A DNA stretch of 63,432 nucleotides, filler included. It is 5 parts of 5 records of this genome, joined end to end, with 100 filler letters (N's around TTAATTAATTAA, not from the genome) between each part and the next. Parts side by side here need not be neighbours in the genome. Positions count along the whole stretch, not along the records: positions 29,141 to 39,275 come from DRR723986_1368; 4 more parts are not named here. One strand, 5' to 3'. Of the stretch, positions 29,041 to 61,542 are shown one piece after another. The position numbers and the translations under genes were made by a program. Position 1 is the first letter of the stretch. Every line of letters begins with the position of its first letter. Below the pieces are notes generated by a model. The model was not told where the DNA came from and did no database searches. It was given only the letters and a program-made list of their open reading frames with translations.

Positions 29041-29140
29041 NNNNNNNNNNNNNNNNNNNNNNNNNNNNNNNNNNNNNNNNNNNNTTAATTAATTAANNNN
29101 NNNNNNNNNNNNNNNNNNNNNNNNNNNNNNNNNNNNNNNN
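29041..29140. other. artificial contig linker (N44-TTAATTAATTAA-N44)
   Basis: N runs around a 12-mer with stops in all six frames; identical at four places; composition changes across it. Confidence 0.97.
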
Positions 29141-29141
29141 A

Positions 29142-32100
29142 GGCAGCCAGTGGTGGGGCATGGCCCGCGACCTGCTGCAACGCAACGCCGTGTTTTCGGA
29201 TGCTGTTGACGCCTTTGATGCTGAGTTTATTCCGGTGGCTGGATGGTCGATCCGCGCAGAGCTGCTCAAGGATGAAGGCAGCAGCCGCATTGACGACACC
29301 ACCGTCACCCAGCCGGCGCTTTTTGCCATTCAATCGGGCCTCGCCGCGCTGTGGAAAGAATTTGGTGTTGAGCCGGATATGGTTGCCGGCCATTCGATTG
29401 GAGAGGCCGCTGCCAGCTATATCGCAAATGGTCTGTCACTGAGCGGTGCGGCCAAATTCCTGTCCAAGCGCGGCGTGATCCGTGACCAGCTGGGTGCCAA
29501 AGGCGCGATGGCGGCCATCGGCATGAACCAAGCTGACGTAGAGGCGATCCTGCCGACACATGGCAAATTGGGTATTGCTGCGATCAACGGTCCTGGCTCG
29601 ACCACAATCAGCGGCGACTATGATGCCCTGCACGAGTTCGTGGAAGAGTTCGAGATGCTCAACCCCGATACCTTCATTCGGGCTTTGACGGTCGATACCG
29701 CATGGCATTCCTATCATCTGGACGCTGGCGAGGACTGGTTCCGCCGCGAAATGGCGACGATTGATTGGTCTGTGCCAACCTTGCCGTTTATTTCGACGGT
29801 GACGGGGCAGCCTGAAACGAGATTTGATACAGACTATGGCTGGCTCAACCTGCGGCGGCCGGTCCGGTATCAGGCGGCGATTGAGACCGCCATCGACATG
29901 GGGGCGAACCTGTTTGTGGAGCTGGGCCCGGCGGCAACCCTCGCCGGCCCTACTAAAAGTACCGCCCTCGAAGCGGGCGCATCTGTCACTGTTCTGAACT
30001 CGATCAACCGCAAGGACAACGATTTTGACACCATGGCCCGCGCTGCCGCGGCGCTGTTTGCCATGGGCTACCCGCTGAATTGGCAAGCGATCACGGGCGC
30101 GCCAATATGCCATGTCGAATTGCCGCAAAACCAATGGGTGGAAGAATCGTTTTGGCAAGACAGTGAAGAAAGCCGTGGTCTGTTGTTCACGCCTGTCAAA
30201 CACCCGTTTCTGGGAATGCCGGAACGCGGCAATGGCACAACATGGACATCCGAGATCAACCTCAAGGCCTATCCTTATCTCAAAGATCACCGGATGCAGT
30301 CCGATGTGATTTTCCCCGCTGCGGGTTATGTCGATACGATGATTGCCCTGTGCCGAGATCAGTTTGGCCCCGACAAAATCATCGAGGTTGAAAACGCGAT
30401 TATCCATGAGGCCCTGTTCATCAATGCTGATGACGAGGTGTTGTTCAGCAATGTCTACGATCCCGAACGAGGGCGGGTGAAGCTGTATTCGCGGATCCGC
30501 GACGCCGAGGATGATTGGATTCTGCGCAGCGAAGCGAAAGTGCGTGTTCTGGATGTGAAGGCCCCCAAAGTGCGGCCCTTTGATCCTGAAGATCCATCTT
30601 ATGAAAAGATTGACGTAGCCTACGTTTATGATGTCGATGCCTCCACCGGATTGATCAACTACGGCACAGCGTTTCAGACCGTCCAAGATCTGTGGATGTC
30701 ACGGTCCAAAACCGTCGCGCGGATTGCCTTGCGCAAAGAGGGCGAGCCGACCAAAGACCGGCACCATCTGCACCCCACTATGTTCGACGGCTGTCTGCAA
30801 ATTCTTGAGCCAAGCATGACGCTCAAAAAGGTTGCGCAGGGCCGTCAGCCCGGTGATCCCGTTTGCCTGCCGGTTGGTCTGGGCCGGATGCGCGTTTATG
30901 CGGATTTCCCGGATGAGGTGATTGTCAGGGCTGATCAGTTCAAAAACACCAAGGGCTCAGACGCCTCCATTGGCTTTACCGTGATGGATCTGGACGGCAC
31001 CGTTCTCATGGTGGTTGAGGACGTGCGCGTAAAGCTGTTGCCGTCAAAGCAGGCCAAAGAAGAGGTCGACAGCGTTCCGGCGCATTTTGTCCGGCAAGAC
31101 ATTGTCGAACTGCGCGAGCCTTTGAGCGCAGATCCGAACACAGGACAGTGGATCGTTCTGACGCACGGCGGCGCGGACGAACCCGAGCTGATTGCGGCGA
31201 TGCAAGGGCTTGGCGCTGATGTTCGCTGCATCGCGCGGGATGTGTTGGGCGATGATCCCGGCGGCACCTTGGCCGATATGCTGGGCACCCAGATCGAAAG
31301 CGGCGGCCTGAGCGGCATTGTCGTCGGCTGGCCGCTTGGCCTAAGCGAGGCGACCGAGGACACCGGAACAAACGCATTGTTCGAACCCATAGACGCTTGC
31401 GTAAAAGACATCATTTCGCTTGGCGAGTTGATGGATTATGCCCGCGCTGGCACAAATGGATTGCCTGACTTTGTCTTTCTGACCTCGGGTGCCTATCCCG
31501 ACACAAACGGCCATGCACGCGGCGCAGCGATCCTTTCGCAAATGCCGATTGCTGCCATGGTGCGCGGGCTGGCCACAGAGGCACCCGAGTACAATGTGCG
31601 CGTGATTGATGCTGATGAACAGGCGCAGTCAGCGCCGCAGTTGTTGGCCCGTCAGATCCTAACGCCCAGCCCGGATACCGAAATCATCCTGCGCGGCGGC
31701 ACATGTTTCGCGCCGCGTTTGCATCATGCCGATCCTCAGGATTTTGACCCAAAGACACTGACTGTCCTTTCAAGCGATAACACCACCAACTTCCATGCGA
31801 CCATGCCATCACCCGGCGTGATCGATCAGGTTGGCTTGGTCGAAATCCCGCTCGCCTCCATCGGGCCAGAGGAGGTGCGTGTGCGCGTTTCTGCGGTCGG
31901 CCTGAATTTCCGCGATATTATGGCGGTCACAGGACTGTTGCCCATCGAAGCCGAGCCAGAGCCCGCATGGCAAAACCTCGGGCTTGAGTTCGGCGGCACA
32001 ATCGAAGCGGTTGGCACAGAGGTCAGCCGCTTTCAGCCTGGCGATCGGGTTATGGGCCTTGGCAAACGGTGCCTGCAACGTTTCATGACCATCCATCCTG

Positions 32101-35096
32101 ATGCGTTGACACTGGTGCCTGATCACATCTCACTGGCCGAAGCCTCCACCATTCCTAGTGCATTTGCGACGGCCCATTACGCGCTCAACCACGTGGGCCG
32201 AATGCGCAAAGGGGAGAGAGTATTCATCCACGTGGCGACAGGCGGTGTGGGCACGGCGGCCGTTCAACTGGCGCAAGCAGCCGGTGCCGAGATTTTTGCG
32301 ACAGCAGGTAGCCCGGCCAAACGGCGGCATCTAAAGGCGCTGGGCGTGCAGCATGTGATGGATTCACGCTCGCTCAAATTTGCCGATGACGTGATGCGGA
32401 TCACCAAGGGCAAGGGCGTTGATATTCTGCTCAACTCCTTGCCGGGGGACTTTATCGCCAAGGGGCTTGATATCATGGCGCCCTATGGCCGGTTTCTGGA
32501 GATCGGCAAGCGCGATGTCTACGAAGACGCCGCCATTGGCATGAAGGCGCTGCGCCGCAATGTGTCCCTGAGTGTGCTCGACCTTGCCGCGATGGGCGAG
32601 GAACGGCCGGATTTGATGGCAGACCTCTTTGCCGAACTGGCCGAGATGTTGACCGCGCAATCCCTGACGCCTTTGCCTCTGACGGAATTCCCCGTGAGCC
32701 AGGTAAGTGACGCGATCCGCTTTATGAGCCAGGCCAAACATATGGGCAAAGTGGTCGTGTCGTTGGATGAAGACCGCTTTGTGATCAAACGCGATGACAC
32801 GCGCGAAGTGAGCCTGTCAACGGATGCGAGCTATCTTGTGACTGGGGGCACCGGCGGGTTCAGCTTGAGTATTGCCGACTGGTTGTCCCGCGTCGGGGCA
32901 GGACATCTTGTTCTTGCGTCCCGCTCTGGCAAGATCGCCAAGGCAGATGAGAAAAAGATCAAGAAAATGCGGGATCGTGGCACCGAGGTATCTGTTGTTG
33001 CGCTGGATATCAGTGACACTGATGCAGTGGAACAGTTTGTCAGCGACGCGCAGGCCAGTGACCGACCGCTCAAAGGTGTGGTGCATGGCGCGGCGGTGAT
33101 CAAAGATGGATTTGCCAACCAGCTCACGCCAGAAATGATCACCGATGTGCTGTCTCCCAAGATCAAAGGGGCATGGAATCTGCACCGTGCCTTTGCTGCC
33201 ACCGGTACAGAGCCTGATTTCATGATCGGTTTTTCCTCCATTGCGCAGGCAACGGGATCGGCAGGGCAGACCAACTACATTGCCGGCAACGCCTTTTTGG
33301 ACGCGCTTGCACATTACCGGTTGTCATTGGGCCGTCCGGGCACCGCCATCGACTGGGGTGTGATTGCAGATGCAGGGTTTGTGTCCCGCAACAGCGCCTT
33401 GGCCTCCTATCTGGAAAGCGTAGGACAATTCGGGCTTGATCGCAAAGACACAGACGCCGCCATGGAATTGGCAATTGCCCGCGATGCGCCGACGTTTGTC
33501 TACTCCCGCGCGGACTGGGCGCAGGTGGCCCGCGCCAACCCTGCACTCGGCGCATCGCCGCGTCTGGCCAGCGTTCTTGATGCGACGGGCGGTGGCACAA
33601 CCGAAATCCGGGCGCGTCTGATGCAATTGTCGGGCGAGGAATTGATTTCTGAGGCCGAGGATTACATTAAGGATGAGATCACCAACGTCCTGAAGATCGA
33701 AAAGAGCGTCATCCAGGTGGAGCGCCCGATGAGCGAACTGGGCCTCGACAGCCTGTCTTCGTTTGAACTGAAGATCCGCATAGAAACGGCCCTGCAAGCC
33801 ACGATCCCAGTGTCAAAGTTCCTGCAAGCGCCCTCCATCCGCGAATTGTCAACCATGCTTGCCGCCGAGATTGAATTGATCCGCCGGGCCGAGGCGGCTG
33901 CTTTGGCGCAGGGAGAGGCGTCAGGGGTAACGTTGGGCGAAGGAAAAACTTCTGGAGGATTCGCCGCAAGCAACAGGCAGATCGGGGTGCTGCGCGATGT
34001 GGCCGCGCCTATGACATCGGAACCTGCGCAAACCGCGATGGAACATTCCGCCATTTGCAATCTGGAGAAACACATCGCCGCAGGCGACCTTGAAAAAGCC
34101 CTCCGCAAAGTCGAACGCCGCCATCCGCTGTTGACCATGAGGGTCGGGTTGGATGGCCAGATCAAACCCGGCGGTCCGGGTGTGACGCTTATCCAGGGAA
34201 CAGATGATACGCCTCTTGAGGTTGCAAACGGCGCATGGGCGCGGCTGTCCTGCCAATATCAGGGCGATCAGACGTTTCTTGCCCTGCGCCTGCATCACGC
34301 GGCCGGGGATGCCGCTTCGGCAGATTTGCTATTGCAGGAAATCACGCAGGTGCTGGCGGGCGAAGCTTTGGCAAAACCGGTACCGCGTCGCAAGCTCTTG
34401 TCACATCTGGCCAACGGCCGGTTTGACGCGGAAGACCCGGCTTCACAACAAGACCGTGCGTTCTGGTGGTACGCGCTTACTGCGGCGCCAGCCCGCCCGG
34501 TGCCTTTCAGCACCCGCAGTCGCGCGCTCGTGCCGCCTCTGGCTGGCCGAAACCACGGGCCAGCGGAGGTGATCACTGCATCGGTTACAGGCGTGCGGAC
34601 AACCTCCACATTGCTATGTGCTTTTGCAACGGCCCTGCGCGATGCCACCCGCAGCACAGGTCCGGTTCTGATCGGACGAAGAACCTCACTGCGCGCGGGT
34701 TTGCCGACGGGATCGGCCATTGGCCCCTTTGACGTCGAGCAGCCCCTGCCAGTGCCGACCACCCGTGCAGGACGCGCCGATCTGGCGCAATTTGACCGCG
34801 TTCTGGCCGCCGCGGATAAGCACCGCAAATTTGACAGCTATGCCGCCGCGGCGGAGTTCGCGTCGGCCTTTGAAGATTGGGATGTCTCGCCCTTCCAGAT
34901 CCTCTTTGAAGAGGTTGATACGTTTTCCAGCGTTGCGCCGCGCAATCTGTTGCATGATGTTTGGTTGCAGGTGTGCATTCAGGACGGCCAAACCCGTTTG
35001 CGTCTGATCTATGACCGCGACGTTGTATCGCCGCAGACGGCACAATCTGTTTCAGACAACCTACTGACCAGCCTGACGCAGGTAGAACCCGTTTGA
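29142..35096 (+). CDS. highly reducing type I polyketide synthase, 5' truncated: AT-DH-(pseudoKR)-ER-KR-ACP-condensation-like domain
   Basis: Frame open from the contig edge (GSQWWGM); AT GHSIG; DH HPFLG...DHRMQSDVIFPAAG and DGCLQ; ER GLNFRD, HVATGGVG; KR GGTGGF, GQTNY; ACP LGLDSL; C-like HHAAGD. Confidence 0.92.
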   Translation, partial: GSQWWGMARDLLQRNAVFSDAVDAFDAEFIPVAGWSIRAELLKDEGSSRIDDTTVTQPALFAIQSGLAALWKEFGVEPDMVAGHSIGEAAASYIANGLSLSGAAKFLSKRGVIRDQLGAKGAMAAIGMNQADVEAILPTHGKLGIAAINGPGSTTISGDYDALHEFVEEFEMLNPDTFIRALTVDTAWHSYHLDAGEDWFRREMATIDWSVPTLPFISTVTGQPETRFDTDYGWLNLRRPVRYQAAIETAIDMGANLFVELGPAATLAGPTKSTALEAGASVTVLNSINRKDNDFDTMARAAAALFAMGYPLNWQAITGAPICHVELPQNQWVEESFWQDSEESRGLLFTPVKHPFLGMPERGNGTTWTSEINLKAYPYLKDHRMQSDVIFPAAGYVDTMIALCRDQFGPDKIIEVENAIIHEALFINADDEVLFSNVYDPERGRVKLYSRIRDAEDDWILRSEAKVRVLDVKAPKVRPFDPEDPSYEKIDVAYVYDVDASTGLINYGTAFQTVQDLWMSRSKTVARIALRKEGEPTKDRHHLHPTMFDGCLQILEPSMTLKKVAQGRQPGDPVCLPVGLGRMRVYADFPDEVIVRADQFKNTKGSDASIGFTVMDLDGTVLMVVEDVRVKLLPSKQAKEEVDSVPAHFVRQDIVELREPLSADPNTGQWIVLTHGGADEPELIAAMQGLGADVRCIARDVLGDDPGGTLADMLGTQIESGGLSGIVVGWPLGLSEATEDTGTNALFEPIDACVKDIISLGELMDYARAGTNGLPDFVFLTSGAYPDTNGHARGAAILSQMPIAAMVRGLATEAPEYNVRVIDADEQAQSAPQLLARQILTPSPDTEIILRGGTCFAPRLHHADPQDFDPKTLTVLSSDNTTNFHATMPSPGVIDQVGLVEIPLASIGPEEVRVRVSAVGLNFRDIMAVTGLLPIEAEPEPAWQNLGLEFGGTIEAVGTEVSRFQPGDRVMGLGKRCLQRFMTIHPDALTLVPDHISLAEASTIPSAFATAHYALNHVGRMRKGERVFIHVATGGVGTAAVQLAQAAGAEIFATAGSPAKRRHLKALGVQHVMDSRSLKFADDVMRITKGKGVDILLNSLPGDFIAKGLDIMAPYGRFLEIGKRDVYEDAAIGMKALRRNVSLSVLDLAAMGEERPDLMADLFAELAEMLTAQSLTPLPLTEFPVSQVSDAIRFMSQAKHMGKVVVSLDEDRFVIKRDDTREVSLSTDASYLVTGGTGGFSLSIADWLSRVGAGHLVLASRSGKIAKADEKKIKKMRDRGTEVSVVALDISDTDAVEQFVSDAQASDRPLKGVVHGAAVIKDGFANQLTPEMITDVLSPKIKGAWNLHRAFAATGTEPDFMIGFSSIAQATGSAGQTNYIAGNAFLDALAHYRLSLGRPGTAIDWGVIADAGFVSRNSALASYLESVGQFGLDRKDTDAAMELAIARDAPTFVYSRADWAQVARANPALGASPRLASVLDATGGGTTEIRARLMQLSGEELISEAEDYIKDEITNVLKIEKSVIQVERPMSELGLDSLSSFELKIRIETALQATIPVSKFLQAPSIRELSTMLAAEIELIRRAEAAALAQGEASGVTLGEGKTSGGFAASNRQIGVLRDVAAPMTSEPAQTAMEHSAICNLEKHIAAGDLEKALRKVERRHPLLTMRVGLDGQIKPGGPGVTLIQGTDDTPLEVANGAWARLSCQYQGDQTFLALRLHHAAGDAASADLLLQEITQVLAGEALAKPVPRRKLLSHLANGRFDAEDPASQQDRAFWWYALTAAPARPVPFSTRSRALVPPLAGRNHGPAEVITASVTGVRTTSTLLCAFATALRDATRSTGPVLIGRRTSLRAGLPTGSAIGPFDVEQPLPVPTTRAGRADLAQFDRVLAAADKHRKFDSYAAAAEFASAFEDWDVSPFQILFEEVDTFSSVAPRNLLHDVWLQVCIQDGQTRLRLIYDRDVVSPQTAQSVSDNLLTSLTQVEPV

Positions 35097-36469
35097 TGGC
35101 ACAAAAAGAGTTAGCGGCACCGGCAAAGCCAACGATCTACCCTGTCACAACATGGCAGCAATACCTGCTGGATGAGGCGACCCATCCTGACTGTACCGAC
35201 GATCTGCGGGACAGGTTTATCCTGTCCAATGCCTTTCTCGTGCGCCCCAAAATTGATCTGCGCCGCCTGCGCCGGGCCGTGGACAAACTGCGAGAACGGC
35301 ACGACAGTCTGCGCATCCGGCTTTGCCAGATCAAAGGCAAATGGCGTGCCGTGATTGACCCGCCACGTGGTGAAACCATCCGCGAAGTGGATTTAGGGGA
35401 CCTGAGCGACGAGGACTTCTTGCCCTCAATTTCGGCGATTTCCAATGCGCCGATGCCGTTGATTGACGCCCCCCTCGCCGAGGTCATCGTGGCCCATTGC
35501 GGCATGCGCGGCGATGTCCTGATCACGCGGGTGCATCATGCGATTACCGATGGGTACGGCATGGTGGTCCTTACGGAAGATCTGACGAAGTTCCTGATCG
35601 GACTGCCAGTTACGGGCAAGGCTGTATCACATGCCGACTACATTAAGCGGTTTCAATCCCCCCGACCCAGCCACGCAGCCAAGACCGAAGCCTTTTGGGA
35701 CGCACTGCACCGCGACCTGCCGCCAGAACCCAATGTCGGGCGCAAGGCAAAGGGGATAGAACCGCTGTCTTATGCGCTGGGAAAGGTCGACCAACGGCAA
35801 CTGACCTGCCGGGCCACTCCAGACAGCCTTCGATCCTTCGAAGCGCGGGCCAAGGCGGCGAACCTCAGCGCGACAACGCTCTTGTTCGCAGCCTACCTCG
35901 AAGCGATCTGTCAGTGCTACGATCTGGACCGGCTGATGTTTATGGTTGCGATCTCTCGCAGTGATCCGGCCCTTGATACCTATGCGGGGGATCACACGCT
36001 TGATCCAATTTTGCCATATCGCCGCTTCGGATCATTGCGGATCATTGACGCGGGCAAGGCACTTGCCGACTCCTTTGCCGAGGCGATGGCCCATCTGCCA
36101 TCTGATGCGGCACGCCGGGGAACAGCCTATCAGCGGAGGTTGATCGAACGTGGGTGCAATCCGAGCCAGTTTTCCGTGCATCAACCTCGCGCCATGTCCC
36201 GCCAAGACAGATCCATGTTCAGCGAGGGGTTTTACGCGGGCGTCGGGGTTATCCAGAAGATCGGACCCTTCACGCTTGAAGCGTTGGATATTTCGGTCCG
36301 GCGGCGACGATTTGCGGATATGCGACTTGAGGTGGGATCGGCCAAGGTTCGCACAGGGTTTGGCCTGTCTTATGACGGGATCAGCTATACCGAGGACGAA
36401 GCCAGAAAGATTGTAAACACGATCTGCCAATTTCTTGACCTGGAACCGGTGGGCATGGATTTGACATGA
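35093..36469 (+). CDS. stand-alone condensation-domain / PapA-like acyltransferase
   Basis: RHDSLR, HHAITDG (HHxxxDG) and AFW motifs; no A or T domain; overlaps the PKS stop. Confidence 0.85.
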   Translation: MMAQKELAAPAKPTIYPVTTWQQYLLDEATHPDCTDDLRDRFILSNAFLVRPKIDLRRLRRAVDKLRERHDSLRIRLCQIKGKWRAVIDPPRGETIREVDLGDLSDEDFLPSISAISNAPMPLIDAPLAEVIVAHCGMRGDVLITRVHHAITDGYGMVVLTEDLTKFLIGLPVTGKAVSHADYIKRFQSPRPSHAAKTEAFWDALHRDLPPEPNVGRKAKGIEPLSYALGKVDQRQLTCRATPDSLRSFEARAKAANLSATTLLFAAYLEAICQCYDLDRLMFMVAISRSDPALDTYAGDHTLDPILPYRRFGSLRIIDAGKALADSFAEAMAHLPSDAARRGTAYQRRLIERGCNPSQFSVHQPRAMSRQDRSMFSEGFYAGVGVIQKIGPFTLEALDISVRRRRFADMRLEVGSAKVRTGFGLSYDGISYTEDEARKIVNTICQFLDLEPVGMDLT

Positions 36470-37638
36470 CCAAGAAGCCCGCCGCCAAAGAACCGATCAA
36501 CCTGCGCCAGTTCGGGTTCCACCCGTTATCGCTGCGGCTTTGGCATGGGATGGCGCTGGATGCGTGGCTTCGTGCGATGAAGGGCAAATGGCATATGGTC
36601 TCGCCCAGCCGTTACCCGCTTGTTGCGATGATCACCCTTTTCAGCATCGGCAACTTGGGGCTCAAATGGCTGTCGCAATTGATCTACGGACGGCGGTTGG
36701 CCAAAGTCGAAATTGTGCCAGACCCGATATTTGTCATCGGGCATTGGCGCAGTGGAACTACTTGGCTGCACCAGTTGATGATCTCTGACCCACGCCATGC
36801 GGCCCCGGATGTCAGGGCCTGTTTCCGCCCGGAAACATTTCTGGTCGGGCGCGGGATTTTGACACCGGTATTGCGCTGGGCGCTTCGGGAAAAACGCCCG
36901 ATGGACAATGTCCGCCTGAAACTGGATAGCCCTGAAGAAGACGAGCACGGAATAACTCTATCCGGCGCATTGTCTCCGTACCGTCACAACATGTTTCCCG
37001 ACGATGTACGTCGGGTGCCCACGAACCCTGATGAGATGACCACCACGGAGGCAGTGTTCTGGCGCAAAAAATGGCTGGCATTCCTAACGCGGGTCCAGTT
37101 TGTGAACCCAGGAAAACGTCTGGTGCTGAAATCGCCAACGCACACGATGCGTACCAAAGAAATCTTGCGGATTTTTCCGAATGCAAAGTTCATCCATATT
37201 GTTCGAGATCCCTATAAAGTGCTGCTGTCCAATCGAGACATGCGCACTGCGATCTGGTCAGTGTGCTCGCTGCAAGACCATTTGCCCTCGCTGGAAAACC
37301 GCGACGCCAGTATGATCAAGCGTTCCGTGGCGTTTCACAAACAGTTTGACCAGGATCGGCGCCACATTCCCGATGACCAGATTATCACTCTGCGATATGA
37401 GGATTTGAGGGCAGATCCCATTGCGAGTATGCGCACAATCTACTCTCATCTAAACCTTGGTGATTTTGCGTTGATTGAGGGCAATCTCGGCACGATGGTC
37501 GGGCCTGCGCGTCCCTATCAAAACAACCGGTATGAGCTGGACGATCAAACCCGGGCGATGGTGGATGATCAATTTAGCGACTTCTTTGAGCAGTACGGCT
37601 ACGTGCCGATGGATCAACGCCCGGCAGCCGCGCCATGA
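36466..37638 (+). CDS. PAPS-dependent sulfotransferase
   Basis: PIFVIGHWRSGTTWL 5'-PSB loop, LKSPTH, IVRDPY 3'-PB, RYEDL; N-terminal hydrophobic segment. Confidence 0.9.
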   Translation: MTKKPAAKEPINLRQFGFHPLSLRLWHGMALDAWLRAMKGKWHMVSPSRYPLVAMITLFSIGNLGLKWLSQLIYGRRLAKVEIVPDPIFVIGHWRSGTTWLHQLMISDPRHAAPDVRACFRPETFLVGRGILTPVLRWALREKRPMDNVRLKLDSPEEDEHGITLSGALSPYRHNMFPDDVRRVPTNPDEMTTTEAVFWRKKWLAFLTRVQFVNPGKRLVLKSPTHTMRTKEILRIFPNAKFIHIVRDPYKVLLSNRDMRTAIWSVCSLQDHLPSLENRDASMIKRSVAFHKQFDQDRRHIPDDQIITLRYEDLRADPIASMRTIYSHLNLGDFALIEGNLGTMVGPARPYQNNRYELDDQTRAMVDDQFSDFFEQYGYVPMDQRPAAAP

Positions 37639-39275
37639 CCCTGTCCGAGCGGATCACCCACTGGCTGTTCCGGTTTCGGATTGTTGCATTGGTTTTGTTT
37701 GCAGCGCTGATCGTTGGTCTGTCATCCGGTATCCCCCGTTTGGAATTCTCATCCGACAGTCGCGGGTTCTTTGGGCATAGCAACACAGAATTCGCGGATG
37801 TTTTACAGATCGAAGAGACCTATACGGTTTCCAACACTCTGCTTTTGATGGTTGTCCCACCGCCGGGCCGCGCCTTTGCCCCCGACAGCTTGAAGATCTT
37901 GCAGCAGATGACCGATGACGCATGGCAAATGCCCTATGCCCTGCGCATCGATTCCGCGATCAACCACATGCATTCCTATGCCCAAGGCGACGACATCCTT
38001 GTGGAGCCGATGCTGGATGAAGATGCCGAGATCACGCCAGAGGCGGCGGAACGGTTTCGCGAATTGGCCATGGCATCCGGCACCCTGCGCAATACGCTTT
38101 TGTCCGAGAATGGCGATGCCTATGGGATCACCATTCGCGTTATTCTCCCCAAGGAAGAGGGCAAACCGGCGGCGCGCAAAGAGGTCGAGCAGTTCCTCAA
38201 ACAATTGCGCGATGATTGGCAAGCTGCCTATCCGGGTTGGCAGGTGCGCATTGCTGGCGGTCTGCTAGGCAACACCCTTTTGGCTCAGGTCGCGGTTGAG
38301 GATATCCTCTATCTCGTTCCTCTTGCGCTTATGGCTGTGGTCGTTCTTTTCATCGTTGCACTCGGCTCCTTTGCGGCTGTCGCGGCGTCGGTTGTTGTCT
38401 TGGTCTGTGCAACACTGGCCACCTTTGGATTTGCCGGATGGGCCAATGTCGCGTTGACGGCGGGCACGGCGATTGGCCCGCTTGCGGTGATGGTTCTGGT
38501 CTCAACCAGTTGCGTCCACATCGTGCTTGGCACCATCCGCGCAGCCGAAGCGGGGCAGGAGGGTGATCCATTTCGCCATGCCATCACGCAGAACCTAGCG
38601 CCGGTGACGGTCAGCCATCTGACAACGGCTTTTGGATTTTTGTGCCTGAATTTCGCCCCGTCGCCGCCCTTGGCCCAGATGGGCAATATCGTGGCATTTG
38701 GGTTGATGGTCGGCCATGTGTCGGTGTTTGTAGTCCTGCCAAACGTGTTGCACGCCGCCTATCCACGCCGGGCAAGCCGCCTGATGGTCAGTGGGCAGGA
38801 TATGCGCCGGTTCGCTCGGTGGGTTCTAGGAAAAAGCCGGATCTGGCTGATGCTGTTTCCGGTCACCGGTGGACTGGCTGTTTTGGGTGTCCTGCGGCTG
38901 GACTACGACGACAATGTCATCCGCTATTTTGATCAACGCTACGAATTGCGGCAGGACGCCGAGGCCATTCAACAACGGCTGACAGGCCTTGAGGCGATGC
39001 AGTTCAATCTGCAAGCTGAGGGTGGTCAAAGCGTATTCGAACCGGAGTTCTTGAAAGCGGTGGATCGCTTTGCCCTGTGGTTGGAGGCGCAGCCGGATGT
39101 TGTGGCGGTGTCCTCTCTCACCCGGATCATCAAAGACCTGAACCAAAGCATGAATGGTGACGCGGAAGACGCCTTTGCAATAGCCAAGACCCAACCCGCG
39201 AACGCGCAGCTATTGATGTTCTACGAATTGTCTTTACCCGTCGGGATGGATCTGAACGTGATGATGGATGTGGAC
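37635..39275 (+). CDS. MMPL/RND family transporter, 3' truncated
   Basis: TM - large periplasmic loop - TM bundle - second loop architecture; LTTAFGFL motif. Confidence 0.85.
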
Positions 39276-39375
39276 NNNNNNNNNNNNNNNNNNNNNNNNN
39301 NNNNNNNNNNNNNNNNNNNTTAATTAATTAANNNNNNNNNNNNNNNNNNNNNNNNNNNNNNNNNNNNNNNNNNNN
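39276..39375. other. artificial contig linker
   Basis: N44-TTAATTAATTAA-N44. Confidence 0.97.
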
Positions 39376-39769
39376 TCGCCTTCGCCCTCCGCCTTAATGC
39401 CTGTGCTGTCGATCAGCAGGTTCAGCGACCCGTGCGAGCCTCTGTAGGGAATGGACACGGACAGGGTTTTCTTGCGCCGGCTTAAGGTGCTGAGGTCCGG
39501 CACCGTCCAGTGGAGGCCGACTAGGCGGAGCAGGCTCTCCACGAACCCCGTCGTCTGCCTGAGGGCCATGCTGAAGAGGACTTCATCGTCAGGCACGTCT
39601 GGATCGCGGCATCGCTATACCGCGGCTGCCTGCCTCGCCTGCCGGTTGGTGGCGGCACCCACACCATGTCCGGATCGAACCAGATCGTCAGGGAGCCGCG
39701 CTGCTTCAGCGCTTTGTTGTAGGCCGGCCAGTTCTTGGTCTTGTAGCTCGGCGGGATGGGCCTGCTCAT
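39376..39769 (-). pseudogene. frameshifted IS5 transposase
   Basis: NWPAYNKALKQRGSLTIW...AIQTCLTMK continues in another frame as VLFSMALRQTTGF...IDSTGIK; apparent 1-nt deletion near 39581. Confidence 0.8.
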
Positions 39770-39832
39770 ACAAGCCAGCTACCACGCTGCATTCGTGAAA
39801 TGAATCCCCTTCAGCCTTTGCGCAACAAAGCC
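39376..39832 (-). mobile_element. IS5 family (IS903-like group) insertion sequence, left part
   Basis: Terminal GGCTTTGTTGCGCAAA (39832-39817, minus strand) resembles IS903-type IR; transposase N-terminus follows. Confidence 0.85.
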
Positions 39833-40172
39833 CGGGTCAACGCACCGGCAAACCCTAGGCATCGCGGTGCGCGCGATCTGCTGGTCTTGACCGGGCTCGT
39901 GTAAAAGAGATCGGTTGTCCGGATCTGCTGACATTTCATTGCATGTCTGATCAGTAAACAAAAATGACACCACGCCGGTTCCGGCGCACTTCTGCGAGTG
40001 CGGCGCCACTGGCACCCCGCGGATACGCCAGCGCCGCGTGACGTTCGCTCATCCCCGTTCGAGAGCGTCATCGCCGGCGTGCTGCCCCCTGCCTCAGGTT
40101 CAGGCAAGGGGCTTCAGTACGAATGACCCGTCATTCAAGGATCAGTTCGCGATGGGCATGCCGTGCATCGCA

Positions 40173-41234
40173 CTAGGCCGTGATCTGGCCAAGTTCGTGA
40201 TTGTCGGGAAGATTGGCCACGGCGAAACGACCCGATGCCGGTCGAGACATCCTGGAGATGCGCTTTCCGGCGGTATAGTCGTTGATAACATCGCAGGGCG
40301 TGTAGTTTCTGCCGATTTCATGCAGTTCGTCTTCGTCCAGCGTCAGCTCCAGAGCCGACAGGGCGCTGTCGATCTGATCCTTGCTATCGGCACCGACCAG
40401 CATTGAGGATACTTCGGCCTTTTGCAGCACCCAGGCCTGCGCCACCTGCGCGGGCGTCGCGCCTCGCATCTCGGCAACGCGGGCGACGGACATCGCGACG
40501 TCCCGCGTGGTTTGATCGCCATACATCTCGGCGGTGAAGAAATCCGTCTGGTTGCGGATCGAGTTCATGTCGCTGGTCAGGATGCCCCGCGCCAGCGGGC
40601 TGAAGACCGACACGCCCACGCCCTGATCCGCGCAGAACGGGATCATCTCGCGTTCTTCCTCGCGATAGGCGCAGTTCAGTTGCAACTGCATGTTGATGGG
40701 CCGTGCCCAGCCATTGCGGTCGCAGGCGTTCAGGATCTTGGCGAATTGCCACGTATACATGGTCGAGACGCCGACATAGCGCGCCTTGCCCGCACGGATC
40801 ACGTCATTCATCGCCTCCATCGTTTCCTCGATGGGGGTTTCGGTGTCGAAGTAATGCAGCATGTAGATATCGGCGTAATCCATGCCCATCCGCGACAGCG
40901 ACCCGTCGATGGCGTTGAAGACATGCTTGCGGGAATGACCGCCATTGTTGACGCCGCCACCGATCGGATAGCCCAGCTTGGTGGTGATCACCAATTCATC
41001 GCGACGAGCCAGGCGACGCAGCACGTTGCAGACGACCTCTTCCCCGGCACCTGCGGAATAGAAATCCGCGAGGTCGATGAAATTGACGCCATTGTCCAGC
41101 GCGTGGCCGATGATCGGCTCGCTTTCGGCCTCGTCATAGATCCAAGGCTTCCACTGCTTGGAACCCATGTTCATCGTGCCAAGGCACAGGCGCGAAACTT
41201 TCAGGCCGGACCGGCCCAGTCGGACATATTCCAT
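40173..41234 (-). CDS. aldo/keto reductase
   Basis: LGRSGLKVSRLCLGTM, D-x4-Y, TTK, MLH, GKARYVGVS, SPLARG. Confidence 0.92.
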   Translation of the reverse strand: MEYVRLGRSGLKVSRLCLGTMNMGSKQWKPWIYDEAESEPIIGHALDNGVNFIDLADFYSAGAGEEVVCNVLRRLARRDELVITTKLGYPIGGGVNNGGHSRKHVFNAIDGSLSRMGMDYADIYMLHYFDTETPIEETMEAMNDVIRAGKARYVGVSTMYTWQFAKILNACDRNGWARPINMQLQLNCAYREEEREMIPFCADQGVGVSVFSPLARGILTSDMNSIRNQTDFFTAEMYGDQTTRDVAMSVARVAEMRGATPAQVAQAWVLQKAEVSSMLVGADSKDQIDSALSALELTLDEDELHEIGRNYTPCDVINDYTAGKRISRMSRPASGRFAVANLPDNHELGQITA

Positions 41235-41303
41235 TAGAACAGCTTTCGATGAAGGTAAGGGGGTGGGCGCGGCCGTGTCCGGCCGCGCGTGATGCCGGGG
41301 CGA

Positions 41304-42812
41304 TCAGGCGTCGCCGTAATAGATCCAGGTGCCCTTGGTCTTGGTGTAGGACGACAGCGAATGGATCGCCATCTCCTTGCCCCACCCGCTTTCCTTGAAA
41401 CCTCCGAAGGGGCTGGACAGGCCGTAGCAGCCATAGCGGTTCACGAAGACCATGCCCGCATCCAGCCGGTCGGCCACGCGATGGGCGCGGCTGATGTCGC
41501 TGGTATAGACGCCGGCGGCCAGCCCGTAGGCGGTGTCATTGGCCATTGCGACGGCCTCTTCAGCGGTGTCGAAGGGCGTGCAACACAGGACCGGGCCGAA
41601 GATTTCCTCTTGCGCGATGCGAGCGGTGTTCGGGACATTCGAAAAGATCGTCGGGCGGATGTAGAAGCCGTCGGCATTCGCGCCATCGCGATCCGCACGG
41701 CCGCCCGCGACCAGTTCGGCCTCGGTCTTGCCGATCTCGATATAGTCCATGATGCGGCGGAACTGCGCCTCGTTGCATTGCGGGCCCTGATCGGACAGCG
41801 GCGACAGCGGATCGCCGCAGACCACCGCATCGGCCTTGTCGATCAGCCGCTGAAGCACGCGGTCATAGATGCCGCGCTGGATCAGGAACCGCGTCGGCTC
41901 GGAACATTTCTCGCCCTTGTGCGAGAACATCACCGTGAAGGCGCGATCCACGGCCGCATCCAGATCCGGCGTGTCGTCGAAGAAGATGCAGGGCGATTTG
42001 CCACCCAGTTCCAGCGTCACCGCCTTCAGGTTCGACGCGCCCGAGTTCTGGACGATCTTGCGCCCGACCACGGTGCTGCCGGTGAAGGACACCTTATGGA
42101 CGTCGCGGCTGAGCGTCAGCTGGTTCGCGGCCTCGCCATCGGTCAGCACGAGGTTCAGGATGCCCTTGGGCAGATCCAGGTGGCGGTCGATCAGTTCGAA
42201 CAAGAACAGCGTTGCAAGGGGCGTGTATTCCGACGGTTTCATCACTACCGCATTGCCCATCGCCAGGGCCGGCGCGATCTTCAGGCTGGCCTGATAGAGC
42301 GGGAAGTTCCACGGCGCGATCAGGGCACAGACGCCGACAGGCTCTTTCGTGGTGAAGTTCAGGAACCCGTCCTCGACAGGCGAAACCTCGCCATAGAACT
42401 TGTCGGTCCAGCCCGCGTAATAGTCGAAGATATCGGCACAGGTCGGAATGTCGTCGGCCAACGCCTCGCGATACAGTTTGCCATTGGCAAGGCTTTCCAG
42501 CAGGGCCAGCCCCTCGACATTCTCGCGGATCAGGTCCGCGATGGCATGCAGCATGTCGGCGCGGTCCTTGCGAGAGGATTTGCGCGACCAGTCGCCGCTG
42601 CGATGCGCCCGGTGGGCGGCGGCGGCGGCCTGATCGACCTGTGCGGCGTCGGTCAGTGCGATCTGGCACAGGCTGCGCCCATCCGCAGGGTTGGTGACCG
42701 CCCAGTTGCGGCCCGCACCGTCGACCCAGTTTCCGTCGACATAATGCCGCTTGGGCTGGGTCAGCCAGTGATTGGCCCATCCCAGATCGGCCTGCTGCAG
42801 AACGTCTTTCAT
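41304..42812 (-). CDS. aldehyde dehydrogenase
   Basis: PWNFP, FTGS, LELGGKSP, GEKCS catalytic Cys, EEIFGP, PFGGFKESG. Confidence 0.93.
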   Translation of the reverse strand: MKDVLQQADLGWANHWLTQPKRHYVDGNWVDGAGRNWAVTNPADGRSLCQIALTDAAQVDQAAAAAHRAHRSGDWSRKSSRKDRADMLHAIADLIRENVEGLALLESLANGKLYREALADDIPTCADIFDYYAGWTDKFYGEVSPVEDGFLNFTTKEPVGVCALIAPWNFPLYQASLKIAPALAMGNAVVMKPSEYTPLATLFLFELIDRHLDLPKGILNLVLTDGEAANQLTLSRDVHKVSFTGSTVVGRKIVQNSGASNLKAVTLELGGKSPCIFFDDTPDLDAAVDRAFTVMFSHKGEKCSEPTRFLIQRGIYDRVLQRLIDKADAVVCGDPLSPLSDQGPQCNEAQFRRIMDYIEIGKTEAELVAGGRADRDGANADGFYIRPTIFSNVPNTARIAQEEIFGPVLCCTPFDTAEEAVAMANDTAYGLAAGVYTSDISRAHRVADRLDAGMVFVNRYGCYGLSSPFGGFKESGWGKEMAIHSLSSYTKTKGTWIYYGDA

Positions 42813-44215
42813 CTGCGGGTTCCTTCCTTGTCGTTATGGGGTTTGGACAGGCGCGCGATATGCTGACGGATCACCGCCAGATCGCCACCTGCCTGTTTCG
42901 CGATGTCCGAGGCCGCGCTGTAGCCCGCCACCTGTTTCAGGCGGATCAGCAGGGGCAGCACGCTGTCCGCATTGGCATCGTTTCTGGCCGCGTTGGGCAG
43001 CATGCCCTGCACGCAGTGACGGCGCAGGCTGGCGATGCCGCCGTCCAGCAGCGCCATCATGTCCAGCAGATTGACGATCACCACCGACTGCCATGGGCTG
43101 TAATCCAGCTCGCCGTGATCCTGCGTCATGCGAATCGCGGCGGCGCGGCCGCAGGCGGTCATCGCCATCTGGATCATGAATTCGGGCAAGGTCGGGTTGA
43201 TCTTGCCCGGAATGGCCGAGGATCCGGGCTGCACCGCAGGCAGCCGCAGTTCCGTAAGCCCGCAATGCGGCCCCGAGGCCATCAGGCGAAGGTCCTTGGC
43301 GAACCGGATCAGTCCACGCGCCAACTGCTCCAAGGTCGCGGCAAGGTTCAGCAGCGCGTCATGCGCCTGCGATGCCGCGAAGAGATCATCGGAGCGGGTC
43401 AGGTCGGCGGGCAGGCCGCCGTCGGACAGCACGCGGTTCAGATCGTCGATGGCGCGGGCAAAGAAGGCGGAATCGCAGTCCTGCGAACGCCCGATGATGT
43501 TGCCACCCAGATTGACCCGACGCAGGGCCAGCGCATCGGACTGCGCCCGGTCCAGGCCGCATTGCAGATTGGTAACGACGCCGCCCAGATAGTCGCCAAA
43601 CCGGATATCGACCGCATCCTGCAGGCAGGTGCGCGCAAGTTTCCGCTGCGCACCCCAGGCGTCGCAAAGCCCGCGCAGATCCGCGATCAAGCCCGCTATC
43701 CGCGCCCCCAGCCCGGCCCAGACATGCCGTGCGGCGATGTGGCAGGCGGTCGAGAACGCGTCGCTGGTGGAATGGTTCAGGTTCACATGGTCGTTTGGAT
43801 GGATCGGATCGTAGCTGCCGAAGGCGCGGCCGAACCCGTCGCGGTTCGCCAGATTGGCCAGAACCTCGTTTACGTTCATATTGAAGGACACGCCGCCCCC
43901 GCCATGCAGCGCGTGGACCGGGAAATGCAAGGCTGGGTCTCTCAGCGCCCCCTGCCCCGCCGCATCGATGGCACGGGCACGATCGGCAGGCAGCGCCCCG
44001 ATTGCGGCATTGGTTGCGGTCGCGCCGCGCTTGACCGCGATCAGTGCGGACAGCAGCGCCGGATAGTCGCCGAAACGCCCGCCCACCTGCGCCGGGTACA
44101 GCGCGATCGCCCGCGCCGTCTGTGCACCCCATGGGGCATCGGCGGGCACGCGCACGGGGCCAAGGCTGTCAGCCTCGTCGCGCCAAACTGTCTCGGTTGC
44201 CTTGCCCATCGGCAT
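42809..44215 (-). CDS. aspartase/fumarase-superfamily lyase, divergent
   Basis: WGAQTARA, NMNVNE, HPNDHVN, RTCLQDA, GSSAIPGKINP. Confidence 0.85.
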   Translation of the reverse strand: MPMGKATETVWRDEADSLGPVRVPADAPWGAQTARAIALYPAQVGGRFGDYPALLSALIAVKRGATATNAAIGALPADRARAIDAAGQGALRDPALHFPVHALHGGGGVSFNMNVNEVLANLANRDGFGRAFGSYDPIHPNDHVNLNHSTSDAFSTACHIAARHVWAGLGARIAGLIADLRGLCDAWGAQRKLARTCLQDAVDIRFGDYLGGVVTNLQCGLDRAQSDALALRRVNLGGNIIGRSQDCDSAFFARAIDDLNRVLSDGGLPADLTRSDDLFAASQAHDALLNLAATLEQLARGLIRFAKDLRLMASGPHCGLTELRLPAVQPGSSAIPGKINPTLPEFMIQMAMTACGRAAAIRMTQDHGELDYSPWQSVVIVNLLDMMALLDGGIASLRRHCVQGMLPNAARNDANADSVLPLLIRLKQVAGYSAASDIAKQAGGDLAVIRQHIARLSKPHNDKEGTRR

Positions 44216-44318
44216 GATCCTCTCTGCCTGCGGGACCAGCTATTTCCCGGACAGGGTGATTTGCGCAAACGACTTCGGCGCAGACCTCATTCCGAAAATT
44301 CATGGGCCGAGCACATGG

Positions 44319-45077
44319 TCAGATGATGTGGGACGACAACTGGCGGGCGGCCTGAACAATGTTCTTGGAATAGACCCGCGCGCTTTGATCAGTCAGCATC
44401 TCGCCGGTGAAACAGGCGCTGATCGCGGCAACAGGTTCGCCCTGCAGGTTCAGGACCGGCGCGGCAACGCACCCGACATCCTGCTGGATCTCGTTCACCG
44501 TCACGGCATAGCCCAGCCTTGCCGAACGCTCCAGGTCGGCGGCCATGCGCGAGGGCAAGGCATCACCCTCGGCGATCAGGCCTTCATTGGCGAAATATGA
44601 CATGCGCAGGAATGGCTGCTGCGCGGCCAAGATCGCCTTACCAGATGCCGATTGATGCATGGGCATGGTCCGCCCGACATAGGCGTTGAACGGCTTGCTG
44701 GCCGGGGCGTCGTGCTTGGCCACGATCACGACCTGATTGCCGACCGGCAGGCTCAGCAGGATCGTGCGGTGGATCTCGTTCTTCAGGATTTCCGCGATGG
44801 GGTTGAAATAGGGAACGATGGGCTGGCGACCCAGAATGGATGACGACAGCTGAAACACCCGCGAGCCGATGATGTAGGTCTTGCGCCGCCCCGGCGCCAT
44901 CGCGACCAGATTGTGCTGCAGCATCGCGCCGATGATTCGATGCGCGCTGGCCGAAGCCAATCCGGTCTGTTCGCAGATCTCGGACAGTTGCAGCGGATAG
45001 GGCGCACGGCCCAGCACCTCCATGATCGCCACCGATCCGTCGATGGCCGGTGCCGCCGTCTTTTGTTCCGAAGTCAT
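44319..45077 (-). CDS. IclR family transcriptional regulator
   Basis: N-terminal HTH, SASGKAIL, GCVAAPV. Confidence 0.9.
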   Translation of the reverse strand: MTSEQKTAAPAIDGSVAIMEVLGRAPYPLQLSEICEQTGLASASAHRIIGAMLQHNLVAMAPGRRKTYIIGSRVFQLSSSILGRQPIVPYFNPIAEILKNEIHRTILLSLPVGNQVVIVAKHDAPASKPFNAYVGRTMPMHQSASGKAILAAQQPFLRMSYFANEGLIAEGDALPSRMAADLERSARLGYAVTVNEIQQDVGCVAAPVLNLQGEPVAAISACFTGEMLTDQSARVYSKNIVQAARQLSSHII

Positions 45078-45122
45078 TGGAATCGCCTTGCTTGCATCTT
45101 CACCTCATCCCTATCTACAAAT

Positions 45123-45157
45123 TTCCATATATGGAATAGTTATTCCACTTATGGAAT
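45123..45157. promoter_or_regulatory. tandem palindromic operator TTCCA-N4-TGGAA x2
   Basis: TTCCATATATGGAA (45123-45136) and TTCCACTTATGGAA (45143-45156), 20-bp period, in the divergent intergenic region; TTGACA at 45163-45168. Confidence 0.75.
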
Positions 45158-45220
45158 TTTTGTTGACAGGTCCGTGACAGGGTGCAAGTTCCGGTTTGCA
45201 GCCAACAAGCGGAGGACGGC

Positions 45221-46645: not shown

Positions 46646-46664
46646 CCGACAAAGGAGCCGCCTG

Positions 46665-49542: not shown

Positions 49543-49565
49543 CAATCACCTTGAGGGAGGGGAAA

Positions 49566-51140: not shown

Positions 51141-51216
51141 TCAAAGCTGACGTGACAGCCAGCCACGCTGCCAGTCATGGGGCGGCGTGGCCTCAACTAT
51201 CAGGCGGATCATCCTC

Positions 51217-52083: not shown

Positions 52084-52107
52084 GGTCAGGACTCATAGCC
52101 AATAGAT
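52080..52107 (-). mobile_element. right end of a second IS5-family element (IS427-like group)
   Basis: Minus strand reads ATC TAT TGG CTA TGA GTCCTGACC CTAG: IYWL-stop transposase C-terminus, short terminus, CTAG target; the contig breaks here. Confidence 0.6.
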
Positions 52108-52207
52108 NNNNNNNNNNNNNNNNNNNNNNNNNNNNNNNNNNNNNNNNNNNNTTAATTAATTAANNNNNNNNNNNNNNNNNNNNNNNNNNNNNNNNNNNNN
52201 NNNNNNN
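52108..52207. other. artificial contig linker
   Basis: N44-TTAATTAATTAA-N44. Confidence 0.97.
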
Positions 52208-53976: not shown

Positions 53977-54030
53977 GCGCTGGCTCTCCCGCTTGCGTGT
54001 TCTTTTTTGTGTGATGTCTGAGGGGCGGTC

Positions 54031-57372: not shown

Positions 57373-57472
57373 NNNNNNNNNNNNNNNNNNNNNNNNNNNN
57401 NNNNNNNNNNNNNNNNTTAATTAATTAANNNNNNNNNNNNNNNNNNNNNNNNNNNNNNNNNNNNNNNNNNNN
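57373..57472. other. artificial contig linker
   Basis: N44-TTAATTAATTAA-N44. Confidence 0.97.
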
Positions 57473-57473
57473 C

Positions 57474-57692: not shown

Positions 57693-57753
57693 TGTTTGCC
57701 AAACCCTGCCGATTGCCTTGTTGGCCCTAACCACGCAAAAAGGAGCCTAAGCC

Positions 57754-58740: not shown

Positions 58741-58744
58741 CGGG

Positions 58745-61483: not shown

Positions 61484-61491
61484 GCACTGTT

Positions 61492-61519: not shown

Positions 61520-61542
61520 CCCAAACCAACGGAGCGTGGATA

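Follow-up and report, generated by a model that had tools for sequence, protein, structure and literature searches.

A Sulfitobacter-related gene cluster with an MAS-like polyketide synthase, two condensation-type proteins, and a sulfotransferase, predicted to make and export an acyl lipid

We analyzed a DNA window of 63,432 b (the whole stretch, made up of five contigs separated by N...TTAATTAATTAA...N spacers), of which the second contig is filled by four co-directional genes encoding a type I polyketide synthase (PKS), a free-standing condensation protein (C2), a sulfotransferase, and an RND transporter (Pfam MMPL). On balance, we consider it somewhat probable that the product of this Roseobacter-group cluster is an exported acyl lipid that derives from the PKS and is usually sulfated. 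The genes present and their order, the domain folds, the conservation of motifs, the patterns of fusion, and the rarity of the cluster are observed, whereas iteration, malonyl use, the acceptor, the order of sulfation, and the direction of transport belong to the proposal. The four genes had been listed in a sequence-only reading as a reducing PKS with a terminal condensation-like domain, a free HHxxxDG protein, a sulfotransferase using 3′-phosphoadenosine-5′-phosphosulfate (PAPS), and an MMPL exporter, and this list was confirmed by Pfam. What that reading had observed was real, and its interpretation was half right.

The PKS gene lacks its 5′ end at the contig boundary, and the ketosynthase (KS), which had been supposed to lie in the unseen part of a cut cluster, was found at the N-terminus of the full-length relatives (2555–2597 aa), with its Cys and His motifs kept in the family consensus. 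The catalytic and cofactor motifs of the dehydratase (DH), enoylreductase (ER), ketoreductase (KR), and acyl carrier protein (ACP), as we take them to be defined, were readable in the PKS sequence. The best solved relative was mycocerosic acid synthase (MAS), with a single colinear match from the acyltransferase (AT) to the ACP (residues 1–1575, 1e-161). The best NCBIfam model was Pks2_ls1_myc (4.1e-208), to which the PKS scored 694 bits against an equivalog cutoff of 2400, a shortfall that is far larger than the missing KS could explain. We class the PKS as an MAS/Pks2-type fully reducing single module with the order KS-AT-DH-ER-KR-ACP (the KS seen in relatives), as judged from its sequence. 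In one alignment, the AT motifs of the PKS read GHSIGE and TAWH, those of the tylactone AT GHSQGE and TAGH, and those of the DEBS AT GHSQGE and YASH. The pair GHS[VIL]GE with a bulky aromatic residue at the third position of the second motif is associated with malonyl units, and the pair GHSQGE/YASH is associated with methylmalonyl units, which give methyl branches. Because GHSIGE/TAWH fits this rule, we predict with modest confidence that the AT uses a malonyl extender and that the chain is straight. No C-methyltransferase domain was reported by Pfam in the cluster open reading frames (ORFs) scanned. The suggestion of a possibly branched chain in the sequence-only reading was thus not borne out.

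The C-terminal domain of the PKS (C1) gave a weak match to Pfam Condensation (0.0019 for the whole protein and 8.4e-6 for the domain alone), and it was modeled by AF2 with a pLDDT of 87.2. The best Foldseek match of the model was the enacyloxin chain-release condensation (C) domain (6cgo, E 6.6e-19), followed by C, E, and Cy domains of non-ribosomal peptide synthetases (NRPSs). There were 315 PDB matches at E <= 0.001; those listed were mainly C, E, Cy, and X domains and included SgcC5 (4znm), the glycopeptide X-domain (4tx3, rank 30), and a LovB/MokA-type C domain (6ad3, rank 36). By hhalign, C1 aligned with the C2 family end to end over 356 columns (50% probability, E 1.6e-4). We are confident from the model that C1 has a true C fold. 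Its second, catalytic His was kept in four of 11 family members in one alignment and in three of 12 in another, and the residues in its place were Q, N, S, A, R, or D. Of the 12 members of the second alignment, 10 kept the first His and nine the Asp; one member lacked all three residues, and one was gapped at the motif. HHAAGD is complete in the copy on the window contig and in the two relatives nearest to it.

C2 matched Pfam Condensation at 1.1e-20 and was 91% identical to the copy in Sulfitobacter mediterraneus. Its HHxxxD motif was kept in 22 of 23 aligned homologues and in all 19 locus copies, and its matches in the ESM Atlas were to generic stand-alone condensation-protein clusters only. 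The best matches of C2 in a phmmer search of the PDB were the C domains of PvdL and tyrocidine synthetase (TycC), at 3.3e-9, and PapA5 was not among the matches at E <= 1. Neither C1 nor C2 showed a PapA_C signature at E <= 5, where only PF00668 was reported; we take PapA_C, from its name, to be the PapA-specific Pfam family. Despite its HHxxxDG motif, C2 does not appear to be of the PapA type. C1 and C2 do not seem to be equivalent either, as the C1 motif is degenerate in most relatives and that of C2 is kept. The earlier view that two C-type enzymes transfer the chain is not supported as it stands: it fits the motif of C2, but for C1 it runs against the loss of the catalytic His in most of the family.

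The C2 profile was also searched against 1.84 billion representative proteins. Four representatives of 3039–3112 aa (P0283, P0295, P0301, and P0318) combined a PKS with a C2-like domain in a single chain, the latter matching at E 1e-60 to 1e-65 with HHxxxD[GA] present in three of the four. A C1-like part was recognized in three of these proteins (E 6e-16 to 2e-43), and the C1-like stretch of P0283 gave only a weak match of the C2 type. One further protein of 1016 aa was a C1-C2 didomain. As C1 and C2 are fused in other lineages, the fusion pattern, and this pattern only, gives good evidence that the two act together as a tandem directly after the ACP. A protein of 1953 aa (P0060) comprising the C-terminal half of the PKS, C1, and fragments of the MMPL/RND transporter and LolA was rejected, as it is probably an artefact of a frameshift, gene call, or assembly and not a true fusion.

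The surroundings of the cluster were examined in the relatives recovered (five genomic and eleven metagenomic loci), which were annotated with Pfam and with hidden Markov models built from our own alignments. The same six genes were found in seven loci (L003, L004, L011, L012, L013, L022, and L030), which are intact or truncated nowhere but at the beginning of the PKS gene (the PKS of L012 is cut at its 5′ end). In addition to the PKS, the six-gene core encodes an outer-membrane barrel protein (430–477 aa), C2 (447–464 aa), the sulfotransferase (390–435 aa), the RND transporter (759–791 aa), and a LolA_like protein (265–267 aa), and the window contig shows four of these six genes. The order of the core genes varied between loci, and the flanks differed from genome to genome. 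In complete relatives, including S. mediterraneus, the KS lies directly after the divergent barrel gene, and a LolA-like or barrel gene stands at the end. No adenylation (A), peptidyl carrier protein (PCP), thioesterase (TE), or AMP-ligase domain was reported by Pfam in the cluster ORFs scanned in the relatives, and neither a fatty acyl-AMP ligase (FAAL) nor a loading gene was seen in the cluster of complete relatives.

The genes of transport in this core point to a route across the envelope. The truncated RND protein of the window matched the NCBIfam models actII/MMPL (5.9e-13), HpnN (9.9e-12), and HAE3 (5e-10), and its full-length S. mediterraneus counterpart matched HAE3 (1.3e-26), HpnN (4.3e-22), and MMPL/actII (8.8e-15), all of them below the cutoffs. 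The transporter appears nearer to the HpnN/HAE3 lipid transporters than to actinobacterial MmpL (HAE2). The LolA_like protein of the relatives (match 2e-52) has a Sec signal and no lipobox cysteine and is therefore predicted to be soluble and periplasmic. The barrel protein belongs to no Pfam family, has a Sec signal and a C-terminal F, and shows 35–70% identity among the five genomic relatives; its model is a beta-barrel resembling porins and AlgE. Loci differ in the place of its gene, which is either upstream in divergent orientation or at the 3′ end. As the three proteins are embedded in a biosynthetic operon, we infer that they serve export.

The sulfotransferase matched Sulfotransfer_3 (1.1e-33) and Sulfotransfer_1 (2.5e-10) and also Sulfotransfer_4, and it contains one moderately hydrophobic stretch at residues 51–70. 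By the usual definitions, HWRSGTTW and RDPYKVLLS are its 5′-PSB- and 3′-PB-like motifs. The Stf0 type forms a separate Pfam family, for which the protein had no match at E <= 0.01, the threshold of the Pfam scan of the window proteins, and no NCBIfam model matched. The nearest solved chains (2zq5 and 2z6v, 7e-8) are labeled "putative uncharacterized protein", and we take them to be mycobacterial Stf1 and Stf9. The sulfotransferase belongs to a large family: of 4210 candidates, 1235 proteins matched at E <= 1e-10. Many homologues at 37–51% identity were named automatically by JGI as omega-hydroxy-beta-dihydromenaquinone-9 sulfotransferase, which is the activity of Stf3, described together with the sulfated menaquinone S881 (PMC3141025). 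This label would indicate only that the closest characterized relative sulfates a lipid hydroxyl and not trehalose. The sulfotransferase is best regarded as a distant Stf1-3-like enzyme and not as Stf0. Decarboxylative chemistry of the curacin/olefin-synthase ST-TE kind was ruled out, as there is no TE, the sulfotransferase is a separate Sulfotransfer_3 protein, and the match to the CurM ST is weak (0.0066).

The gene following C2 was visible in 13 loci, the window included, a count that contains the near-duplicates L003/L022, L004/L025, L023/L024, and L028/L029 and hence fewer independent loci. It encoded the sulfotransferase in nine of them, a second C2 paralogue in three, and neither in one (an orphan C2). 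In L012, the sulfotransferase follows the PKS, and C2 lies close by in the opposite orientation. The cluster usually, but not always, includes the sulfotransferase. The claim that the product is sulfated is favored by the nine loci, together with a sulfatase gene beside the cluster in L030, but it does not extend readily to the three loci in which a second free C2 takes the place of the sulfotransferase.

We propose the following scheme. The MAS-like fully reducing PKS would iterate with malonyl units on a fatty-acyl starter from primary metabolism and build a long, straight, saturated chain on its own ACP. With no thioesterase, C2 would off-load the chain by acyl transfer to a small polar acceptor, at a hydroxyl or an amine, for which the cluster itself has no genes. 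C1, lying between the ACP and C2, would be mainly non-catalytic or auxiliary (docking, substrate holding, or gating), and it may remain active in the window lineage, which keeps HHAAGD. The Stf1-3-like sulfotransferase would sulfate a hydroxyl on the acceptor or the lipid, the acceptor and the order of sulfation both being presumed, and lineages with a second C2 in its place would attach another acyl chain instead. The HAE3/HpnN-like RND protein would take the product from the inner membrane, the soluble LolA-like protein would ferry it across the periplasm, and the dedicated beta-barrel would pass it into or through the outer membrane.

Several points weigh against this scheme. Iterative use of the module is suggested by its architecture and likeness to MAS only, and the malonyl prediction follows a general motif rule, with TAWH matching neither canonical motif. 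Given that the C1 of the window lineage keeps HHAAGD, both C domains could be catalytic here. Stf3, which enters through an automatic label, sulfates a lipid omega-hydroxyl, and no hydroxylase that could create one is present in the cluster. The KS, the LolA-like protein, and the barrel lie off the window contig and are attributed to it from relatives, the nearest of which has 90% identical DNA, and the confidence of the barrel model is moderate (pLDDT 66.7). The direction of transport is likewise presumed, and a comparable MMPL-LolA-porin set in Thalassolituus is interpreted as uptake (PMC6304351).

The genes around the core differ between relatives. In S. mediterraneus, a Wzx-type flippase gene (Polysacc_synt, L015:17399-18676) lies beside the barrel gene, and next to the flippase there is a gene for a 652-aa protein with RTX calcium-binding repeats and DUF4214 (L015:15365-17320, −). 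In the seawater metagenome locus L030, a Wzx-type Polysacc_synt flippase gene (L030:17053-18372, +), 47% identical to that of S. mediterraneus, follows the barrel gene, and the sulfatase gene (L030:387-1877, +) is just upstream of the PKS. The flippase was ruled out as a core member, as it has 21% identity to the L012 neighbor and was not near the cluster in the other genomes searched. In L012, C2 is outside the operon, divergent downstream (L012:9714-12034, −), where it is paired with a GT2 gene near a weak MatE/MOP-like membrane protein. None of the sulfatase, GT2, and flippase neighbors is general to the cluster. Orphan C2 genes are present in L028 and L029, and S. mediterraneus has a second, orphan C2-like protein of 454 aa (26% identical, profile E 1.7e-78; L014:10403-11764, +, a position shared with L010 and L021). 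Its gene is remote from the cluster, with a LysR regulator on one side and sugar-kinase genes on the other; as with the second C2 of L004, a role in the same pathway is conceivable. A DDE_3 transposase gene directly follows the cluster in L011 (L011:16496-17383, −), which, with the unrelated flanks elsewhere, hints at horizontal mobility of the cluster.

Four other readings were weighed. The cluster could be a strict analogue of the Mycobacterium tuberculosis sulfolipid-1 (SL-1) system, in which active C1 and C2 would esterify a sugar such as trehalose, sulfated before or after, to give a di-acylated surface sulfoglycolipid. Its functional classes do match those of the pathway outlined in PMC3318749 (Stf0, PapA2, PapA1 with Pks2, and MmpL8), and the intact HHAAGD of the window C1, the GT2 gene adjoining C2 in L012, and the 47% identical Wzx-like flippases adjoining the barrel gene in two lineages would suit it. 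We nevertheless find this reading unlikely. The PapA_C signature and PapA5 are missing from searches in which NRPS C domains reach 3e-9, the Stf0 family is not matched, most relatives have lost the catalytic His of C1, the AT motifs are not those for methylmalonyl, no conserved FAAL or sugar-synthesis gene is found in the cluster, and the sulfotransferase is missing from four of the 13 loci. The claim in the sequence-only reading of the same functional set as in SL-1 therefore stands for the broad logic and the type of PKS and falls for the individual acyltransferases, the sulfotransferase, and the transporter.

Alternatively, the product could be a secreted anionic surfactant or signal, for which C2 would join the chain to an amino acid, amine, or hydroxy acid as an amide or ester. 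The sulfate would sit on a hydroxyl of the chain or head group, and the RND, LolA-like, and barrel proteins would release the compound into the medium. No cluster gene hydroxylates the chain or activates an amino acid, and a LolA-like carrier with a barrel fits the outer-membrane delivery of a very hydrophobic molecule at least equally well. We regard this reading as doubtful, even though C2 is closest in sequence to amide-forming C domains (PvdL and TycC) and the top fold match of C1, the enacyloxin C domain, is a known releaser onto a small acceptor. Free or terminal C domains that release chains are also listed for C-1027, crocacin, and FK520 in PMC5640695. The naming of the sulfotransferase relatives after a lipid-hydroxyl enzyme and the sulfatase neighbor in L030, suggestive of sulfate-ester turnover, would agree with it as well.

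Decoration of an existing envelope polymer (lipopolysaccharide core, lipid A, or capsular or exopolysaccharide) by acylation and sulfation, with no free lipid, is quite improbable. Wzx-type Polysacc_synt genes adjoin the cluster in two lineages, and GT2 and MOP-like genes do so in L012, but the other genomes searched lack such neighbors or showed none close to the cluster, there is no further relation between the flanks of different genomes, and an RND transporter with a LolA-like carrier is a lipid route and not a polymer route. An ordinary hybrid NRPS-PKS with A domains just beyond the contig, to which the C domains and a "T1PKS-NRPS-like hybrid" of S. faviae (PMC10221251; this may be another cluster) might point, is highly improbable and was ruled out, as complete relatives are bounded by the KS after the divergent barrel gene and by the LolA-like or barrel gene, and no A or PCP domain occurred in any cluster ORF scanned.

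The preferred reading, an exported and usually sulfated acyl lipid, concerns a system that is rare. C2 was found at E <= 1e-20 in four of 401 genomes of a family-level sample (S. mediterraneus included). With the C2 profile, two of 401 genomes were found in a class sample (S. mediterraneus and a match inside a 3127-aa frame) and two of 401 in a phylum sample (one of them S. mediterraneus). In a collection of 5.8 billion proteins, 47 clusters matched C2 at E <= 1e-5 among 8000 scored candidates, and in the representative library about 18 representatives scored above 375 bits before a drop to 320 bits and below. The named C2 members of the 5.8-billion-protein collection were from Sulfitobacter and Nioella, and close sulfotransferase relatives were also named Marivita, Aestuariivita, and Oceanicola. 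The cluster is rare, uncharacterized, island-like, and of the Roseobacter group.

A broader interpretation, which we offer only tentatively, is that marine Roseobacter-group bacteria possess a self-contained and horizontally mobile system that makes a sulfated, polyketide-derived lipid of the outer membrane, corresponding in Gram-negative bacteria to the acyl-sulfolipids of mycobacteria. It would have an ACP-pseudoC-C tandem release unit and an RND/LolA-like/beta-barrel conveyor across the envelope, two devices that would be undescribed so far. The features of most note are the C1-C2 tandem, the trans-envelope route, and the alternation of the sulfotransferase with an extra acyltransferase. 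If this is true, lipid-assembly logic held as a hallmark of the mycobacterial envelope would also occur in marine alphaproteobacteria, mostly from non-orthologous parts, and would be relevant to algal and particle life, a setting in which attachment and contact with the host are influenced by surface lipids and sulfated molecules. S. mediterraneus DSM 12244 would then be a tractable and non-pathogenic system for studying the handover from a PKS to C-type acyltransferases and an RND exporter. The degenerate and canonical C tandem, separate here and fused elsewhere, would be a testable new release module for iterative PKSs, and from the RND, LolA-like, and barrel proteins one could learn how specialized lipids of high hydrophobicity reach the outer membrane of Gram-negative bacteria.

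The host of the cluster was identified from its contig, which is 90% identical in nucleotides to a contig of S. mediterraneus DSM 12244 and colinear with it across all 10,134 bases. An alphaproteobacterial origin in the Rhodobacteraceae, as had been supposed, is upheld, and the host is a Sulfitobacter close to S. mediterraneus. Contigs 4 and 5 showed 72–76% identity to S. mediterraneus DSM 12244, with synteny in blocks, and contig 3 matched it in short patches only (65–78% identity). Contig 1 was 98% identical to a 99% complete genome (G001), which had no match to the cluster contig or contig 3 and is therefore no guide to the cluster. The window DNA mixes several organisms (a mixed culture, bin, or contamination), so that the neighboring contigs are uninformative on the cluster.

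Table 1. Contigs, spacers, and cluster features in window coordinates, with the motifs and matches by which they were recognized.
Feature	Position	Strand	Details
Contig 1	1-29040		GC 0.41
Spacer	29041-29140		
Contig 2 (carries the cluster)	29141-39275		10,135 b; GC 0.579
Spacer	39276-39375		
Contig 3	39376-52107		GC 0.63
Spacer	52108-52207		
Contig 4	52208-57372		GC 0.58
Spacer	57373-57472		
Contig 5	57473-63432		GC 0.58
Type I PKS, AT-DH-ER-KR-ACP-C1	29142-35096	+	5′-truncated by contig end; 1984 codons seen
AT domain	29142-30044	+	Acyl_transf_1 2.6e-55; GHSIGE 29388-29405; TAWHS 29697-29711
DH domain	30201-31052	+	PKS_DH_N, PS-DH (1.8e-13, 1.5e-18); HRMQSDVIFP 30288-30317; DGCLQ 30786-30800
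ER domain	31863-32759	+	ADH_N, ADH_zinc_N (7e-13, 9.7e-20), ADH_zinc_N_2; HVATGGVGTAA 32229-32261
KR domain	32826-33368	+	KR 2.5e-60; TGGTGGFS 32841-32864; NYIAGN 33273-33290
ACP	33660-33860	+	PP-binding 2.8e-11; LGLDSL 33738-33755
C1, C-terminal condensation-fold domain of the PKS	33954-35084	+	HHAAGD 34293-34310
C2, free-standing condensation protein	35093 (TTG, 458 aa) or 35096 (ATG, 457 aa) to 36469	+	HHAITDG 35534-35554
PAPS-type sulfotransferase	36466-37638	+	390 aa; HWRSGTTW 36742-36765; RDPYKVLLS 37204-37230
RND lipid transporter (Pfam MMPL)	37635-39275	+	3′-truncated by contig end; MMPL 4.6e-15; 547 of ~762 codons

Each gene of the cluster had been described as overlapping the next by 4 nt. 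Unambiguous 4-nt ATGA overlaps were found at two of the three junctions; the PKS/C2 junction reads TTGATG, where the overlap measures 4 nt with a TTG start and 1 nt with an ATG start, and in the S. mediterraneus copy of C2 the ORF listing called the ATG. Neither A nor TE domains were reported at E <= 0.01 in the cluster proteins of the window, in agreement with what had been noted of its visible part. Many antisense ORFs of 100–416 aa across the region were rejected as genes, being a product of the GC-rich coding strand.

In the literature searched (Roseobacter or Sulfitobacter PKS with sulfotransferase, MMPL-LolA-PKS, and Mas-like synthases with a condensation domain), we found no description of the cluster or of a product for its architecture, as the sequence-only reading had also stated. 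The hybrid of S. faviae mentioned above was predicted by antiSMASH and is uncharacterized (PMC10221251).

The cluster nonetheless resembles several known systems in part. With MAS, it shares the one-module domain order in addition to the closest solved match, but its PKS has an extra C-terminal C-like domain and the AT motifs GHSIGE/TAWH. C1 resembles the X-domain (4tx3) and the C-terminal C domain of LovB/MokA (6ad3) in combining a C fold with a degenerate HHxxxDG motif. Both of these serve as partner or recruitment domains; unlike them, C1 has no P450 or trans-ER partner in the cluster, and its presumed partner would be a canonical C protein. In systems with release by a condensation domain (enacyloxin 6cgo, SgcC5 of C-1027, crocacin, and FK520), a C-fold enzyme likewise replaces the thioesterase and passes the chain to an external nucleophile, a mode of release described as rare in PMC5640695. 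The present cluster differs in its tandem of a degenerate, PKS-fused C1 and a canonical C2 (free or fused), and its PKS would be an iterative lipid-type synthase and not a modular line.

For transport, the closest parallel is Thalassolituus, where an MMPL-LolA fusion beside a porin-like protein is reported to be induced on a long-chain alkane (PMC6304351). The two share an RND protein of the HAE3/HpnN kind, a LolA_like protein, and an unclassified outer-membrane barrel; the Thalassolituus set was interpreted as one of alkane uptake, whereas the set described here is part of a biosynthetic operon and would export. The sulfotransferase is likened to Stf1-3 by its nearest solved chains and by the Stf3 naming of its homologues, but the similarity is distant and is not backed by an NCBIfam match.

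The broadest likeness is to SL-1 (Pks2, FadD23, PapA1, PapA2, Stf0, Chp1, Sap, and MmpL8), with which the cluster shares a reducing PKS, HHxxxDG acyltransferases replacing a TE, a PAPS sulfotransferase, and an RND exporter; of these, the PKS is a genuine homologue of the Pks2/MAS type. It differs in that C1 and C2 are not of the PapA family, the sulfotransferase is not of the Stf0 family, the AT is not of the methylmalonyl type, and the RND transporter is nearer to HAE3/HpnN. No FAAL, Chp1-like, or Sap-like gene was seen in the cluster, its PKS bears a C-like domain of its own, and the sulfotransferase is dispensable in some lineages, while a periplasmic LolA-like carrier and an outer-membrane barrel are added. 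The comparison with SL-1 thus appears to hold for the logic of the pathway and for the PKS, with acyltransferases, a sulfotransferase, and a transporter drawn from other families.

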